Below, one piece after another: positions 1 to 3,638 of a stretch of 4,278 nt of DNA. This DNA comes from a virus (lineage: Duplodnaviria; Heunggongvirae; Uroviricota; Caudoviricetes). The stretch lies in the IMG/VR virus record IMGVR_UViG_2703718871_000027, one strand, 5' to 3'. Both the position numbers and the translations under genes were made by a program. The first letter of the stretch is position 1; every line of letters starts with the position of its first letter. The notes below the pieces were generated by a model. It ran no database searches. It saw only the letters and a program-made list of their open reading frames with translations, and was not told the origin of the DNA.

Positions 1-1230
1 ATGAGCAGAGCACTTAACAAACTGAGCGATACACAGCTGAGGAAAATCAACGGCACACCCGCCCAAAAAACAGCCTTTCTTAATGACGGTGGAAACCTGA
101 GCGTCAGGCATTCAACCAGTGGCCTTTTAACCTGGTATTTCACTTACAGGGCCGGAACGGGAAGGGGGGCACCACCGGAACGCATTAAGCTGGGAAATTA
201 TCCTGATCTGAGCCTGAAATCAGCCAGGGAAAAAGCCGCCCAGTGTCGCGCATGGCTGGCAGAGGGGAAAAATCCACGTCATGAAATGAATTACACCGTA
301 CAGGAAGCGTTAAAGCCGGTAACGGTTGGCGATGCGCTCACCTACTGGCTTGAGTCGTACGCAAAGGAAAACCGTGTGGATTATGACCCACTGAAAAAGC
401 GGCTAAATAATCACGTAATACAGCACATTGGCCCTATGCCGCTGGATAAATGCGAGCTACGGCACTGGCTGGCCTGTTTTGATCGGGTGGCAAAGAAAGC
501 CCCTGTTTCCGCCGGGTTCCTGCTACAGACATGCAAGCAGGCGCTTAAGTTCTGCAGGAAGCGGCGCTATGCAATCAGCAACGTTCTTGATGATATGAGT
601 GTGGCGGACGTTGGGAAAAAACCGGATATAAGTGAGCGTGTCTTAAGTAACAAAGAACTTGGCGAATTATTGCAGGCACTGGACAAAAAAATATTTTCCC
701 CTTACTACGTCGCACTAATCCGCCTCCTGATTGTTTTCGGATGCCGGACAGTAGAACTGAGGTTATCGGAGATCGGCGAGTGGGATTTTACCGAAATGCT
801 CTGGACCGTTCCGAAGGAGCACAGCAAAACGAAGGTAGCCATATTCCGGCCCATACCGGAAGCGATACTGCCGTTCGTCACGCAGCTGGTGGAGCAGAAC
901 AGGCACACGGGCTTATTGCTGGGGGAAGTGAAACAGGAAACCAGCGTATCGCAGTACGGCAGATTGGTGCACAGGAGGCTTAAACACCCTCACTGGTCAC
1001 TGCATGACATCCGGCGCACCTTTACAACCATGCTGAACGATTTAGGCGTTGATCCTCACGTCGTGGAGCAGCTTACAGGCCACCAGATGCCAGGAATGCA
1101 ACGCGTGTACAACCATTCCCGCTATATTGATGCGAAACGCAATGCGCTTGATATGTGGGTGGAGCGGTTGGAGATACTGGCGGGAACACATGAAAACGTA
1201 ACCACGCTACCAGTAACCAGAATAAAATAA
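1..1230 (+). CDS. int: Tyrosine recombinase, P4-type integrase family (N-terminal arm-binding domain plus C-terminal catalytic domain)
   Basis: 409-aa ORF from ATG at 1 to TAA at 1228-1230. N-terminus (LSDTQLRK...LNDGGNLSVRHSTSGLLTWYFTYR) fits the P4-integrase arm-binding domain pattern. C-terminal half has the tyrosine-recombinase catalytic residues in order: GCRTVELRLSE (Arg), HDIRRTF (His-x-x-Arg), GHQMPGMQRVYNHSRY (His and Tyr nucleophile). Window starts at the ATG, so an upstream extension cannot be excluded. Confidence 0.9.
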   Translation: MSRALNKLSDTQLRKINGTPAQKTAFLNDGGNLSVRHSTSGLLTWYFTYRAGTGRGAPPERIKLGNYPDLSLKSAREKAAQCRAWLAEGKNPRHEMNYTVQEALKPVTVGDALTYWLESYAKENRVDYDPLKKRLNNHVIQHIGPMPLDKCELRHWLACFDRVAKKAPVSAGFLLQTCKQALKFCRKRRYAISNVLDDMSVADVGKKPDISERVLSNKELGELLQALDKKIFSPYYVALIRLLIVFGCRTVELRLSEIGEWDFTEMLWTVPKEHSKTKVAIFRPIPEAILPFVTQLVEQNRHTGLLLGEVKQETSVSQYGRLVHRRLKHPHWSLHDIRRTFTTMLNDLGVDPHVVEQLTGHQMPGMQRVYNHSRYIDAKRNALDMWVERLEILAGTHENVTTLPVTRIK

Positions 1231-1280
1231 TTTTTTTCGTGTTTTTTCAGTATGCGCATACTGGATAAGTGCACAGATAC

Positions 1281-1315
1281 AACGTGAAACAATGTGCAAT
1301 AACGTGACACAATCA
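1281..1315. repeat. Two tandem copies (20-bp period) of AACGTGA(A/C)ACAAT in the int-alpA intergenic region; candidate protein-binding sites
   Basis: aacgtgaaacaatg at 1281-1294 and aacgtgacacaatc at 1301-1314. The core TGACACAATCA (1305-1315) recurs at 1535-1545. Function is inferred only. Confidence 0.3.
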
Positions 1316-1413
1316 CGAACAAGAGGCCAAAAAGAATACAGATTTATAAGTTACTGATTTTTAATGCTCAGCTGGTTTTTTATACATTAGTGAATTACGC
1401 GTTAAAGCGTGCG

Positions 1414-1450
1414 AAAAAAGGCATAAAACAAGATTTTATGCCTTTGTATT
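1414..1450. terminator. Candidate bidirectional intrinsic terminator downstream of int
   Basis: 10-bp stem aggcataaaa (1419-1428) pairs with ttttatgcct (1434-1443), loop caaga. Flanked by an A-run (1414-1418) upstream and TTGTATT (1444-1450) downstream. Stem is AT-rich, so predicted strength is modest. Confidence 0.4.
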
Positions 1451-1534
1451 AACATGAATTTAAATGATTTTATCCTGATTATTCCTCTTTCTGTAAACCA
1501 TGCGACACCAACATTTGCCAACTCTGAATCATCC

Positions 1535-1545
1535 TGACACAATCA
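1535..1545. repeat. Third copy of the TGACACAATCA motif, about 60 bp upstream of the alpA start
   Basis: Exact 11-mer shared with 1305-1315. Its position just upstream of alpA suggests a regulatory site. Confidence 0.3.
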
Positions 1546-1604
1546 GACACATCCCAACGCAATAGAACACGAAATAACTCTTTAAGAAACGAAAGGGGGC
1601 AATA

Positions 1605-1793
1605 GTGTTAAGCACTGATCGGTTTATACGTGAAAAAGAATGCGAAAAGCTAACAGGCCTTAGCCGCTCATGCCGCTACCGCCTGGAAAAGGCCGGACAA
1701 TTCCCATCACGTCGTAAACTTGGCGGGCGTTCTGTTGGCTGGTCTTTATCTGAGGTTTTGGCCTGGAAGGATAGCTGCAAGGCAGTTCACTAA
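1605..1793 (+). CDS. alpA: AlpA/Vis-family (MerR-like HTH) prophage transcriptional regulator
   Basis: 62-aa ORF with GTG start at 1605, preceded by SD AGGGGG (1594-1599, 5-nt spacer). The segment FPSRRKLGGRSVGWSLSEVLAWK matches the conserved AlpA-family signature (FP..R.LG.[KR]SVGW...E...W). Sits immediately downstream of the integrase, as in CP4-57-type elements. Confidence 0.85.
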   Translation: MLSTDRFIREKECEKLTGLSRSCRYRLEKAGQFPSRRKLGGRSVGWSLSEVLAWKDSCKAVH

Positions 1794-1833
1794 AAAGACT
1801 GGCGGCACACAGCCACCACCAATCCATTATTGA

Positions 1834-1857
1834 CCGATACCGGGATCTCGGTATCGG
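1834..1857. repeat. Perfect 9-bp inverted repeat CCGATACCG-N6-CGGTATCGG downstream of alpA
   Basis: ccgataccg (1834-1842) and cggtatcgg (1849-1857) are exact reverse complements. No U-tract follows on either strand, so a protein-binding palindrome or RNA hairpin is more likely than a canonical terminator. Confidence 0.5.
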
Positions 1858-1973
1858 GAATAAACGCCATAATACTGAGGTATAACCATGATGAAATATA
1901 CGCCCGTACAGGGGCGGGGATTCGTTCGCCCTGGTGAATCTGAAAAGCCATGCTATAGGGTATTTTCAGGCAT

Positions 1974-2001
1974 AAAAAAAGCGGTCCCGATATGGAACCG
2001 C
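1974..2001 (-). terminator. Rho-independent terminator for the leftward A1-B1 operon (weaker in the + direction)
   Basis: GC-rich hairpin gcggtcc...ggaaccgc (1981-2001). On the minus strand it is followed directly by U7 (complement of the A7 run at 1974-1980). On the + strand it is followed by CTTTCT. Lies about 70 nt downstream of the B1 stop. Confidence 0.55.
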
Positions 2002-2069
2002 CTTTCTGAACAATTAACCCGCTGCGCCGTATGTGTCAACAATCATAAGCCCGAACATGATAACCGTGA

Positions 2070-2273
2070 TCAGGCTGGTGGGCAATTACCTTGCTTGTTG
2101 GGGCCGTATTGTGCTGCCATTTTCATCCGTTCAGAACGTGAATATTTTTTTAGAAACTCATCAAGGACAAAAGCGCATGGAGCGAATCTTTCTGATTCAT
2201 GCTCGAGCGCCATATTTTCGTGCTCTCTGTTCGTTTTTTGCGATGGTGTATTGGTTGATTCTTTATTGGTCAT
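2070..2273 (-). CDS. Hypothetical small protein B1 (67 aa), second gene of leftward cassette-1 operon
   Basis: ORF from ATG (complement of 2271-2273) to TGA (complement of 2070-2072), with a weak SD (AGGT) 7 nt upstream. Paralogous to B2: shared MTN N-terminus, F[AV]L[ED][DE]F..KY.R block and PP[AG] C-terminus. Same 57-nt spacing after the A gene in both cassettes. No recognisable domain. Confidence 0.4.
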   Translation of the reverse strand: MTNKESTNTPSQKTNREHENMALEHESERFAPCAFVLDEFLKKYSRSERMKMAAQYGPNKQGNCPPA

Positions 2274-2294
2274 TGTGTGTACCTGTAAAGCAAT

Positions 2295-2321
2295 GCGCCG
2301 TAGTACCTCACGCCACGGCGC
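2295..2321 (-). other. Conserved hairpin between A1 and B1 (possible partial terminator or RNA processing site)
   Basis: Stem gcgccgt (2295-2301) pairs with acggcgc (2315-2321), 13-nt loop. On the minus strand it is followed by AUUGCUUUA. Nearly identical to the copy at 3036-3062 (one loop difference). Confidence 0.4.
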
Positions 2322-2330
2322 TGATAGTAA

Positions 2331-2510
2331 TTATTCTGATTCTTTGGCCTTGCGGCGCTGGCGGCGTTTGATCTCGCCTTTTGCTGCCGTAACTAGAAAT
2401 CCGGCGGTACTTTCGCCAGGTTCTTTAAGTTGCTCAATATCGGTCATTACCTCATGCGGGATTCTGACCGTTGTCATTTGTGATTTTGCGTTCTTTGCAC
2501 CTGTTGCCAT
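2331..2510 (-). CDS. Ribbon-helix-helix (Arc/MetJ-like) DNA-binding protein A1, 59 aa; putative cassette-1 repressor
   Basis: ATG at complement of 2508-2510, preceded by SD AGGAGA (7-nt spacer); stop TAA at complement of 2331-2333. Sequence MATGAKNAKSQMTTVRIPHEVMTDIEQLKEPGESTAGFLVTAAKGEIKRRQRRKAKESE has the RHH layout: beta-strand (TTVRIP), helix A (HEVMTDIEQL), G-x-S turn (PGES), helix B, basic tail. 63 percent identical to A2 with no gaps. The longer 134-aa track ORF (2331..2735) is rejected because it would cross the promoter/operator region. Confidence 0.65.
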   Translation of the reverse strand: MATGAKNAKSQMTTVRIPHEVMTDIEQLKEPGESTAGFLVTAAKGEIKRRQRRKAKESE

Positions 2511-2530
2511 TTCTGGTTCTCCTGATAATC

Positions 2531-2623
2531 GGTGTATTTCAGTATACGCAAAAAAAAAGATAAAAAAAGTCTTGCGGTGTATTTCACCTGAATGTAGATT
2601 TAAAAATGAAGGTGAAATACACC
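2531..2623. promoter_or_regulatory. Cassette-1 divergent promoter/operator region with three GGTGTATTTCACC-type sites
   Basis: Sites at 2531-2542 (ggtgtatttcag), 2576-2588 (ggtgtatttcacc) and, inverted, 2611-2623 (ggtgaaatacacc). Candidate rightward promoter: -35 TTGCGG (2572-2577), 17-bp spacer, -10 TAGATT (2595-2600). Candidate leftward -10 TATACT (complement of 2541-2546), overlapping the first site. Operators overlap promoter elements as expected for repression and autoregulation. Confidence 0.5.
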
Positions 2624-2634
2624 CAAAACAACAA

Positions 2635-2666
2635 CGCCCCGCAGTGATGGGAACACATACGGGGCG
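2635..2666 (+). other. Cassette-1 rightward leader hairpin (7-bp GC stem) ahead of a conserved RBS and ORF start
   Basis: cgccccg (2635-2641) pairs with cggggcg (2660-2666), 18-nt loop. Followed by TCTAACCAA, SD GAGG (2686-2689) and ATG 2698. The same order of elements occurs in cassette 2 (hairpin 3385-3411, TCTAACCAA, GAGGAG, ATG 3444). Confidence 0.4.
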
Positions 2667-2747
2667 TCTAACCAAACCATTAATTGAGGTAACGATTATG
2701 GCTATAAAAGAGCATAGCTTACTCTTTATACACACACAAACGCCCCG

Positions 2748-2767
2748 GAAACGGAATAATCCGTTTC
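2748..2767 (-). terminator. Weak hairpin at the 3' end of the cassette-2 leftward operon (downstream of B2)
   Basis: gaaacgg (2748-2754) pairs with ccgtttc (2761-2767), loop aataat. On the minus strand it is followed by a G/U-rich stretch (CGGGGCGUUUGUGUGUGU), not a clean U-tract. On the + strand a displaced T-run (2777-2780) follows. Confidence 0.3.
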
Positions 2768-2786
2768 ATAGTTCGGTTTTGTGCAC

Positions 2787-3014
2787 TCATCCTGGCGGTC
2801 GGTTTTTGCCGGATTTAAGCCGCCGTGGGTATTTATCGACAAAATCTTCAAGGGCAAATTTTTCTGGTGGCACTAAGCGCGGCGCTGGTGGTGGTATTTT
2901 TGTTCTGGTTAGTTCTTCCTCAACTCTGGCGCAGGCTTCTGACTGCCTTTGCCGGATGATTTCATCATCTTGCGTTTGCGTGTCTTGTATTGGTGATAGT
3001 GTGTTGTTGGTCAT
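2787..3014 (-). CDS. Hypothetical small protein B2 (75 aa, Pro/charge-rich), second gene of leftward cassette-2 operon
   Basis: ATG at complement of 3012-3014 with SD AGGG 7 nt upstream; stop TGA at complement of 2787-2789. Paralog of B1 with the same gene order and 57-nt spacing after the A gene. No recognisable domain. Confidence 0.4.
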   Translation of the reverse strand: MTNNTLSPIQDTQTQDDEIIRQRQSEACARVEEELTRTKIPPPAPRLVPPEKFALEDFVDKYPRRLKSGKNRPPG

Positions 3015-3035
3015 GATACTGCCCTGTAAAGCAAT

Positions 3036-3062
3036 GCGCCGTAGTACCTCACACCACGGCGC
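3036..3062 (-). other. Conserved hairpin between A2 and B2 (copy of 2295-2321)
   Basis: Stem gcgccgt (3036-3042) pairs with acggcgc (3056-3062). Identical stem and near-identical loop to the cassette-1 copy. Confidence 0.4.
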
Positions 3063-3071
3063 TGATAGTGA

Positions 3072-3251
3072 TTATTCTGATTCTTTGGCCTTGCGACGCT
3101 GGCGGTATTCAACTTCCCGCTTTAATGCAGCTGTAACAAACTGCCCTGTACTTTCGCCGGGCATTTTTACCGCCTCAACATTGTTCATAACTTCATGTGG
3201 AACCCTTGCCGCAACTGTTTGTGATTTTGCGTTTACTGCTTTTGTCGCCAT
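3072..3251 (-). CDS. Ribbon-helix-helix (Arc/MetJ-like) DNA-binding protein A2, 59 aa; putative cassette-2 repressor
   Basis: ATG at complement of 3249-3251 with SD GAGGGG 8 nt upstream (an in-frame GTG 9 nt further upstream is possible but has no SD); stop TAA at complement of 3072-3074. Sequence MATKAVNAKSQTVAARVPHEVMNNVEAVKMPGESTGQFVTAALKREVEYRQRRKAKESE aligns with the Arc repressor fold pattern (beta-strand, P-x-E-V helix A, G-x-S turn, helix B). Paralog of A1. Confidence 0.65.
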   Translation of the reverse strand: MATKAVNAKSQTVAARVPHEVMNNVEAVKMPGESTGQFVTAALKREVEYRQRRKAKESE

Positions 3252-3280
3252 GTTGAGCACCCCTCATAAAAAACAAATGC

Positions 3281-3354
3281 AGTATGCAGGAAAAAAAACA
3301 AGTGTTCAACACTTGACGTGTTTAACACCTCGATTTAAATTGGTGTTCAACACC
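3281..3354. promoter_or_regulatory. Cassette-2 divergent promoter/operator region with three GTGTT-N-AACAC palindromes
   Basis: Palindromes at 3302-3312 (gtgttcaacac), 3318-3328 (gtgtttaacac) and 3342-3354 (ggtgttcaacacc). Rightward promoter: -35 TTGACG (3313-3318), 17-bp spacer, -10 TAAATT (3336-3341); the sites sit upstream of -35, in the spacer, and over the predicted start site. Leftward promoter: -35 TTGAAC (complement of 3304-3309, inside the first site), 17-bp spacer, -10 CATACT (complement of 3281-3286). Confidence 0.55.
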
Positions 3355-3384
3355 TTATTTAGGCAAGGTGTAGAAACGACGAAA

Positions 3385-3411
3385 CCCCGCACTGTAGGAG
3401 CAGTAACGGGG
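3385..3411 (+). other. Cassette-2 rightward leader hairpin (counterpart of 2635-2666)
   Basis: Outer stem ccccg (3385-3389) pairs with cgggg (3407-3411); inner stem actg (3391-3394) pairs with cagt (3401-3404); loop taggag. Followed by TCTAACCAA, SD GAGGAG (3433-3438) and ATG 3444. Confidence 0.4.
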
Positions 3412-3443
3412 CTTCTAACCAACAACGTAAACGAGGAGCCGTT

Positions 3444-3638
3444 ATGGTTGCCGTAAATCATATACCACACCTTGTACACACACAAACGGCCTTTGTGTGG
3501 CGTTTTCTGGCACTGAGTGCCGGAGAATCTCAAATAATCCACGTAACCGCCTGGACGGAACGCGAAGCACGTAACCGTTGCCCGTCAGGTTGTGTTGCTG
3601 TATTCGCCGCCCGTATTCGCCAGGGGGTAGGCTTATGA
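3444..3638 (+). CDS. Hypothetical protein (64 aa), first gene of rightward operon
   Basis: Strong SD GAGGAG with 5-nt spacer to ATG 3444. N-terminus M-[AV]-[IV]-x-x-H-x-x-x-[FL]-[IV]-H-T-Q-T is shared with the cassette-1 start at 2698. Stop TGA (3636-3638) overlaps the next ATG (ATGA), indicating translational coupling. Caveat: hairpins lie inside codons 12-27, so the 5' part may act as RNA. Confidence 0.45.
   Translation: MVAVNHIPHLVHTQTAFVWRFLALSAGESQIIHVTAWTEREARNRCPSGCVAVFAARIRQGVGL
3479..3508 (+). terminator. Terminator/attenuator-like hairpin inside the 5' end of ORF 3444-3638
   Basis: cacacaaa (3479-3486) pairs with tttgtgtg (3492-3499), loop cggcc, followed by GCGTTTTCT (3500-3508). 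A second hairpin follows immediately: ctggcac-tga-gtgccgg (3507-3523). Confidence 0.3.

Follow-up and report, generated by a model that had tools for sequence, protein, structure and literature searches.

Gene content of the window and the predicted fold of A2

The window, by which we mean the whole 4,278-base stretch of DNA analysed, carries int, alpA, two minus-strand cassettes (B1-A1 and B2-A2) and an icd-like gene with replication genes, in this order; on the plus strand, the Icd-like gene is followed by two small proteins and a DUF4222 protein (Table 1). The closest relatives in E. coli are two islands of about 15 kb, L001 (97.8% identical over positions 1-3527) and L002 (95.8% identical over 94% of the window); a further locus, L003, shares 88% DNA identity with the window. 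L001 and L002 continue with genes for RepA helicase, SSB, PerC, HK97 capsid, protease, portal, connectors, HNH and terminase. Both possess int, alpA, replication genes and a capsid/terminase set of their own and are devoid of tail and lysis genes, a layout described for capsid-forming PICIs (cf-PICIs) in bioRxiv 2022.09.08.507074. Judged from its sequence, the window is the left end (4.3 kb) of a capsid-forming PICI-like satellite.

Table 1. Coordinates of genes, sites and promoter candidates in the window
Feature	Coordinates	Strand	Description
Tyrosine integrase	1-1230
AlpA regulator	1605-1793
B1	2070-2273	-
A1	2331-2510	-	YlcI/YnfO family
A1 sites, GGTG-N5-CACC frame	2531-2623		GGTGTATTTCA at 2531-2541; GGTGTATTTCACC at 2576-2588; GGTGAAATACACC at 2611-2623 (inverted)
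B2	2787-3014	-	75 aa; predicted to be co-transcribed with A2; variable cargo-like gene; no family match
A2	3072-3251	-	59 aa; YlcI/YnfO family; predicted RHH protein and proposed repressor (family model, structure model)
Ribosome-binding site of A2, GAGGGG	3265-3260	-	between leftward promoter candidate and A2 start codon
Leftward promoter candidate for A2-B2	3281-3309	-	TTGAAC (3309-3304) -17- CATACT (3286-3281); 8/12
A-tract	3291-3298	none	possible UP element upstream of rightward -35
Site a, GTGTTCAACAC	3302-3312	none	abuts rightward -35; holds -35 of candidate leftward promoter
Rightward promoter candidate	3313-3341	+	TTGACG (3313-3318) -17- TAAATT (3336-3341); consensus match
Site b (general O2), GTGTTTAACAC	3318-3328	none	first base is last base of -35; fills spacer
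Site c (general O3)	3342-3354	none	GTGTTCAACAC at 3343-3353, 13-bp form GGTGTTCAACACC; over expected transcription start
Leader hairpin and conserved UCUAACCA	3385-3421	+	hairpin 3385-3411, UCUAACCA 3414-3421; on rightward transcript, in exchanged block
Icd-like gene	3444-3638	+	first gene of rightward operon; NF033153, 64.9 bits

Two further elements were noted between int and alpA. The repeat TGACACAATCA occurs exactly at 1305-1315 and 1535-1545 (two copies in 3 of 200 shuffles) and could represent arm sites of the integrase or sites for AlpA. The hairpin GGCATAAAACAAGATTTTATGCC, followed by T-rich sequence (1381-1462), may be a terminator; searched against Rfam, it yielded a chance-like match to a Brucella sRNA (BSnc120) of 27 bits at a gathering score of 114.

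A1 and A2 were assigned to the YlcI/YnfO family with the NCBIfam model NF041551, which gave 62.1 and 59.7 bits, respectively, at a cut-off of 30 and was fully covered (model positions 1-42). Pfam provided no family for A1 or A2, and a PADLOC search gave no match. The AlphaFold2 monomer model of A2, computed with 38 homologues, has a mean pLDDT of 86.7 and consists of an extended segment (residues 10-17) followed by two helices (19-28 and 35-58), so A2 is predicted to adopt the ribbon-helix-helix (RHH) DNA-binding fold. Besides this order of an N-terminal β-strand and two helices, it shows the interhelix turn G-x-S/T/N with which RHH proteins, through its backbone and the beginning of helix 2, contact phosphates; G32, E33 and S34 are invariant and T35 nearly so in the 38 homologues. 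In the strand of the A proteins, the hydrophobic residues 13, 15 and 17 alternate with the variable polar residues 12, 14 and 16, an alternation that fits the antiparallel two-stranded sheet which an RHH homodimer would place in the major groove. Past helix 2 there is a short, basic tail without a toxin-binding extension.

Homologues of A2 were found in Salmonella, Klebsiella, Pectobacterium, Serratia, Proteus, Xenorhabdus and other Enterobacterales. A phage genome collection gave neither a DNA nor a protein match to the A2 region, and the module is therefore not shared with sequenced phages. The namesakes of NF041551, YlcI (DLP12) and YnfO (Qin) of E. coli K-12, have the same β-α-α pattern as A1 and A2; a literature search found no functional study of either protein. 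YlcI adjoins cos/nohD in a lambdoid prophage, unlike A2 with its place in a satellite regulatory region. K-12 YlcI was considered as a parallel case and set aside: it is 22% identical to A2, and by eye no obvious GTG-N5-CAC repeats lie upstream of its gene. In lambdoid prophages of EDL933 (L057, 8983-9168) and K-12 (L056, 6252-6446), YlcI/YnfO-family genes are divergent from HNH/terminase or cos-nohD, a placement that hints at a separate role near packaging genes.

Neither B1 nor B2 matched any toxin or defence family. A small B-type family, with the motif KFALD-FV-KYPRRLK-N-NRPPG, occurs in E. coli only, and elsewhere the gene is unrelated or missing. We regard B as a variable passenger of the putative repressor operon, unnecessary for explaining the sites.

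Palindromic sites, candidate promoters and leader between A2 and the Icd-like gene

The sequence GTGTTNAACAC is matched exactly three times in the window, at 3302-3312, 3318-3328 and 3343-3353 (centres 3307, 3323 and 3348; sites a, b and c), and there is no other copy. The expected count is 0.01 per window; three or more copies were obtained in 0 of 200 dinucleotide-preserving shuffles, and three same-arm 5-N-5 palindromes within 60 bp in 0 of 1,000 first-order Markov simulations of the window. These copies, far above chance, are the three palindromes claimed in a preliminary description of this DNA. The extension of one of them to 13 bp was also confirmed, for site c (3342-3354), and, beyond that claim, site a proved to be the core of a 17-bp perfect palindrome, CAAGTGTTCAACACTTG (3299-3315).

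In two 27-kb stretches, each with a whole island, the motif is confined to these three places. Other E. coli islands of the A2 class have all three sites unchanged, the substitutions falling between them, and across the five genera compared the sites and the promoter block are the most conserved part of the intergenic region. Site a is exact in the E. coli, Edwardsiella, Salmonella and Kosakonia relatives and degenerate (GTTGTAAACAC) in Pectobacterium; its position is filled in the A2 class only. A fourth, weak match over the A2 start codon (ATGTTGAGCAC, 3250-3260) was dropped, as it is not conserved in close relatives. Counted from centre to centre, the sites are 16 and 25 bp apart, which does not correspond to whole helical turns, so that a geometry for cooperative binding is not obvious.

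A scan of the intergenic region returned TTGACG-17-TAAATT as the sole 9-of-12 match to a sigma-70 promoter. Transcription from this candidate would run through the leader into the icd-like gene and the operon for replication and packaging. It is treated as a consensus match only, because sigma-70 matches across the whole window are no more frequent than in shuffles; TTGAC itself recurs at the same offset in nearly all loci compared below. The sites lie at its -35, in its spacer and at its start, with site c beginning one base past the -10 in its 13-bp form (3342) and two in its 11-bp form (3343), and the earlier statement that they bracket the best promoter of the region thus stands. The same is true of the -35 of a candidate leftward promoter, placed within the first palindrome: TTGAAC (3309-3304) does lie inside site a, in a promoter match that is weak and, at 8 of 12, under the scan threshold. 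An AGTAT(A/G) element is kept across classes, and every class has an A-rich stretch at the position of the A-tract.

CACCTT, the right arm of site c, can pair with AAGGTG (3365-3370) to give a small hairpin (window 3350-3370), which would sit at the extreme 5' end of the predicted transcript; by eye, similar CCTTGA...TCAAGG pairs are found downstream of the third site in other classes.

The larger leader hairpin, of which a second copy lies at 2637-2675, has compensatory changes in 9 of its 10 base pairs among 28 loci, a number reached in 0 of 500 shuffles. The same hairpin sequence occurs with different A classes, and the hairpin is therefore not tied to the class. Rfam searches with the whole window and with the leader alone gave chance-level matches only (the BSnc120 match of 27 versus 114 bits, and a CRISPR repeat at E 2.5), and the leader alone did not match the C4 and IsrK covariance models even at E up to 10; accordingly, the leader is not a known C4, IsrK or CI RNA. 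A role of the hairpin in RNA processing, RNA stability or immunity is conceivable.

Cassette 1 (2070-2775) consists of B1, A1 and three GGTGTATTTCA-type sites, followed by a leader hairpin of its own and a 25-codon icd-like remnant (2698-2775). Its sites lie at 21, 66 and 105 nt from the A start, the last one inverted, and so follow the general pattern described below. In cassette 2 they lie at 51, 67 and 92 nt, with none at 22 and an extra one at 51, a layout also seen in the Salmonella and Edwardsiella relatives. The architecture, which had been called the same in both cassettes, is similar, but in cassette 2 the start-proximal site is absent and a -35-adjacent site is added. The operators of cassette 1 had further been called unrelated in sequence; this was not borne out, because the frame GGTG-N5-CACC is common to both cassettes: of its only three occurrences in the window, two belong to cassette 1 and the other is site c.

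Cassette 1 runs head-on into B2-A2, so that its promoter would yield RNA antisense to B2-A2. A duplication is marked by a 125-nt direct repeat (2263-2387 and 3004-3128, 82% identical). In the island L039 (E. coli RM10466, CP028381), the A1 slot (3185-3364) is occupied by the gene for an unrelated 59-residue Arc-like protein (VSTHKNERRGNPPFQFRLDP...) with TGTGTATATACACA palindromes of its own, ahead of the leader and icd remnant that cassette 1 also has; different small putative repressors are thus accepted in this slot.

Covariation of strand and site core in related loci

The upstream 230 nt of each A gene were compared in 36 loci from species-representative genomes, 15 loci with chosen alleles, two more E. 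coli islands and 42 contigs of the viral collection. About 90 related loci from at least 15 genera keep one layout to the base pair. A first site about 22 nt from the A start is followed by AGTATA (its complement, TATACT, being -10-like for A) and an A-rich stretch; then comes TTGAC at 60-62 nt (mostly 61) from the A start, fused to the second site (about 67), an arrangement present in 34 of 34 anchored loci among 35 examined. A -10-like hexamer and the third site (about 90-92 nt, 90-105 across classes) follow, and downstream of this the motif TCTAACCA lies between a hairpin and a ribosome-binding site, ahead of an icd-like or ash-like gene.

All sites share the frame GTG-N5-CAC, while the 5-bp core differs with residues 11-15 of the A β-strand, giving about 13 classes (Table 2); in most of these the sites are direct, non-palindromic repeats. 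Whether the palindromes are conserved beside A2 homologues, as the preliminary description implied they should be, could be answered in the affirmative: every A2-type strand is accompanied by GTGTT-N-AACAC at the same offsets. The A proteins with an A2-type strand are 60-85% identical and also occur in other E. coli islands.

Table 2. β-strand sequences of A proteins and the sites found beside their genes
A strand	Site	Loci
SQT[V/I/L]AAR	GTGTT-N-AACAC	window cassette 2, Edwardsiella, Salmonella, Kosakonia, Pectobacterium, contig with Klebsiella-type allele
SQMTTVR (A1)	GTGTATTTCAC	window cassette 1
SQSLKSR	GTGG[G/A]CCACAC	Dryocola, Yokenella
S[K/R]KLEAR	GTGGCTGACAC	E. coli, many Xenorhabdus, Pectobacterium, Salmonella
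SKRFDVR	GTGTC[C/G]GACAC	Leclercia, Pectobacterium, Salmonella
SKKIDVR	GTGTCTGACAC	metagenome-assembled contigs (L050, L051)
SQKLQ[A/T]R	GTGGAGTCCAC	L013, L029
SQKMSAR	TGGGTGCCAG	Xenorhabdus, Proteus
SQSVTAR	GTGTAAGACAC	E. coli
SQALRAR	GTGTAGACCAC	Salmonella (L044)

In IMG/VR, a 27-mer spanning sites a and b retrieved 42 contigs, mostly satellite-sized. An SQT[V/I]AAR gene lies beside it in all 42, three of which show changes of 1-2 nt in A-tract length, and site c is found exactly 25 nt downstream of site b in 42 of 42, its centre base being C, T or A and its arms fixed. The A2-type block is present at a coverage of at least 80% in 487 of 5,426 complete E. coli genomes.

As linkage alone could produce part of the covariation, loci were compared in pairs matched for protein divergence (55-75% identity outside the strand). 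Operator-core identity is 91% for pairs of one strand class (n = 22) and 33% for pairs of different classes (n = 391), while the adjacent A-rich spacer is equally diverged in both sets (46% and 50%, respectively). A plain Mantel correlation did not separate the strand from the rest of the protein (r = 0.52 versus 0.51), and co-inheritance does contribute to the covariation, because no more than 100 bp separate A from its sites; this concern is lessened, though not eliminated, by the spacer control and the exchange in L039.

In L039, the A allele has the strand SKKLEAR and the sites read GTGGCTGACAC, while AlpA (62/62 residues), the Icd-like protein (63/64) and B2 (73/75) are identical or nearly so to those of the window. 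The two islands are 97-100% identical up to position 3105 and from position 3407 onwards, with 3105-3406 as the only divergent block; what has been exchanged is therefore codons 1-48 of A, the operators and the leader hairpin. In other islands the A2 module occurs with other integrases, other alpA alleles and other or no B genes, and the same sites are found beside RepA-helicase, DUF927 or D5-primase replication modules. In the Salmonella loci L046 and L047, an SKRFDVR allele and three sites face a KilA-N operon, without the leader.

Proposed repression by A2, its alternatives and related systems

The conservation of the sites, the covariation of their cores, the exchange in L039 and the predicted RHH fold support the earlier proposal that the palindromes are operators of A2, and it is from these that we infer binding. 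That A2 is the protein which reads the sites appears very likely. We further consider it likely that the three palindromes are A2 operators serving to repress the rightward operon, within an exchangeable immunity cassette, and reasonably probable that the outcome is repression of this operon together with autoregulation.

In the proposed mechanism, A2 dimers would insert their paired N-terminal β-strands into the major groove of the GTG-N5-CAC sites. The GTG/CAC arms, constant among sites, would be read by the equally constant N-terminal arm and Arg16, and the 5-bp core (TT-N-AA in the A2 class) by the variable strand residues 11-15, of which 12 and 14 would face it. Bound to site b in the spacer and to site c at the start point, A2 would exclude RNA polymerase from the rightward promoter, and occupancy of site a (in most other classes, of the start-proximal site) would limit the promoter of A itself and thus A2-B2. 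A, the operators and the leader hairpin would together form an exchangeable immunity cassette, with at least about 13 specificities in satellites of Enterobacterales.

Four other readings of the sites were weighed. If A2 and B2 were a type II toxin-antitoxin pair, the sites of the RHH antitoxin would serve autoregulation only, and it would be by accident that they overlap the rightward promoter. This is very unlikely, because B is variable, unrelated or missing: the gene downstream of A encodes 57-248 aa, comes from unrelated families or is absent (L043, L052, L055, L004, L023, L030), and no conserved cognate toxin was found in the A operon among the relatives. In addition, B1 and B2 are without matches to toxin or defence families, the A proteins have only the short basic tail past helix 2 in place of a toxin-binding extension, and in every class two sites occupy the spacer and the start of the rightward promoter. 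Operators in these two positions are typical of repression by steric exclusion, and this bears on the second reading, to which we assign a very low probability, namely that A2 binds but mainly activates or switches, as lambda CI does at PRM, instead of simply repressing. Some regulators activate from a position directly upstream of the -35, which is where site a lies on the rightward promoter, and site a overlaps the leftward -35 as well; however, it is restricted to the A2 class, whereas the sites common to all classes are those in the spacer and at the start point.

A third reading, that the palindromes are read not by A2 but by AlpA, the Icd-like protein, B2 or a host or helper-phage protein, could appeal to the known role of AlpA as activator of Gram-negative PICIs (PMC6092414) and to the match of the Icd-like protein to PHROGs labelled transcriptional repressor. 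We consider it highly improbable. AlpA, the Icd-like protein and B2 are excluded as determinants of specificity by their identity or near-identity in L039, where the sites are different; together with a replication initiator or a host factor they are also disfavoured because the A2 module persists amid differing neighbours, the sites being retained with other alpA alleles, without the Icd-like gene and without B, and a host factor would not need about 13 cores at one fixed position. That the repeats are structural, as hairpins, a terminator (minus-strand stem 3315-3299 plus T8) or replication-origin iterons, is extremely improbable: a scan does flag the stem and T-run as terminator-like, and PICI replication origins do contain repeats (PMC6092414), but hairpin formation is not conserved, most classes having direct non-palindromic repeats, the sites are unchanged across RepA-helicase, DUF927 and D5-primase modules, and the T-run is the A-tract of all classes, with or without the 51-nt site, so that the terminator-like appearance of 3299-3315 on the minus strand is probably coincidence.

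With A2 as the proposed repressor, the protein and its sites belong to the known RHH repressor-operator kind and not to a new one. Closest in mechanism is Arc/Mnt of P22 (immI), with no similarity to A2 detectable at the sequence level. Two Arc dimers bind a single 21-bp operator; the A2 system differs in having three separate 11-13-bp GTG-N5-CAC sites and many interchangeable specificities, and in belonging to a satellite rather than a phage. Among other RHH proteins, omega (pSM19035) reads 7-bp heptads and CopG (pMV158) binds, as a tetramer, a pseudo-symmetric element of 13 bp; a search for sequence homology between A2 and CopG, omega or CopA-type RHH regulators found none.

Lambdoid immunity consists of CI/Cro and the three operators OR1-OR3 between divergent promoters, with rexAB co-transcribed with the repressor. 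The A2 system resembles it in having three operators between divergent promoters and in the exchange of repressor and operators as a cassette, giving heteroimmune types, and the B genes are comparable to rexAB as cargo that would be co-transcribed with the repressor. It differs in that A2 is a predicted RHH and not a helix-turn-helix protein, in sites of 11-13 bp instead of 17 bp, in the absence of a Cro-like counterpart, and in showing no sign of RecA-dependent cleavage. As with Stl/Rpr of Gram-positive PICIs (PMC6092414), the gene is divergent from the main satellite operon and A2 would keep the island silent; its fold and size are unrelated to those of Stl/Rpr. In some Gram-negative PICIs, P4 immunity (CI RNA, seqA/seqC) and C4/IsrK RNAs have been reported (PMC10111431). 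The A2 locus is like these in the leader of an operon starting with an icd-like gene and in a conserved structured hairpin, and unlike them in having no Rfam C4/IsrK match and in that the proposed control is by protein on DNA.

Gram-negative phage-inducible islands are switched on by AlpA, and whether they possess any global repressor is described as unclear (PMC6092414); the variable gene region downstream of alpA in cf-PICIs is listed as being of unknown function (bioRxiv 2025.02.11.637232). The reported repressor of EcCIMP1 was considered as a counterpart of A2 and rejected, being PerC/ANR-like and unrelated. The prototype cf-PICI EcCIEDL933 (E. coli EDL933, CP008957) is without an RHH cassette and has a 247-residue plus-strand gene (L057, 42170-42913) between alpA and the icd-like gene; according to published work it is induced by AlpA overexpression alone. 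These satellites therefore do not all require A, and, as the 247-residue gene takes the place of the RHH cassettes, induction results from EcCIEDL933 may not transfer to islands of the window type.

As a tentative extension, which we regard as possible but rather doubtful, RHH proteins of the YlcI/YnfO family with GTG-N5-CAC operators might supply a large share of the Gram-negative PICIs, cf-PICIs and P4-like satellites with the missing master-repressor or immunity module, in at least a dozen swappable specificities and with a readable code from strand to core. Helper induction might then proceed via inactivation of the repressor, as for Stl, or via AlpA-driven read-through of the convergent A-B cassette, and tandem cassettes such as the two of the window might serve as a double lock or switch A2 through antisense.

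The matched set of strands and cores represents a natural series for working out the RHH recognition code, and the classes of A proteins and sites could provide small orthogonal repressor-operator pairs for synthetic biology. For YlcI/YnfO, an uncharacterised family, a likely function is gained. Modules of the A2 type are frequent, not universal, in complete E. coli genomes, with related modules in at least 15 genera, and A2 with its sites is a concrete, testable candidate repressor for the silencing of Gram-negative PICIs.
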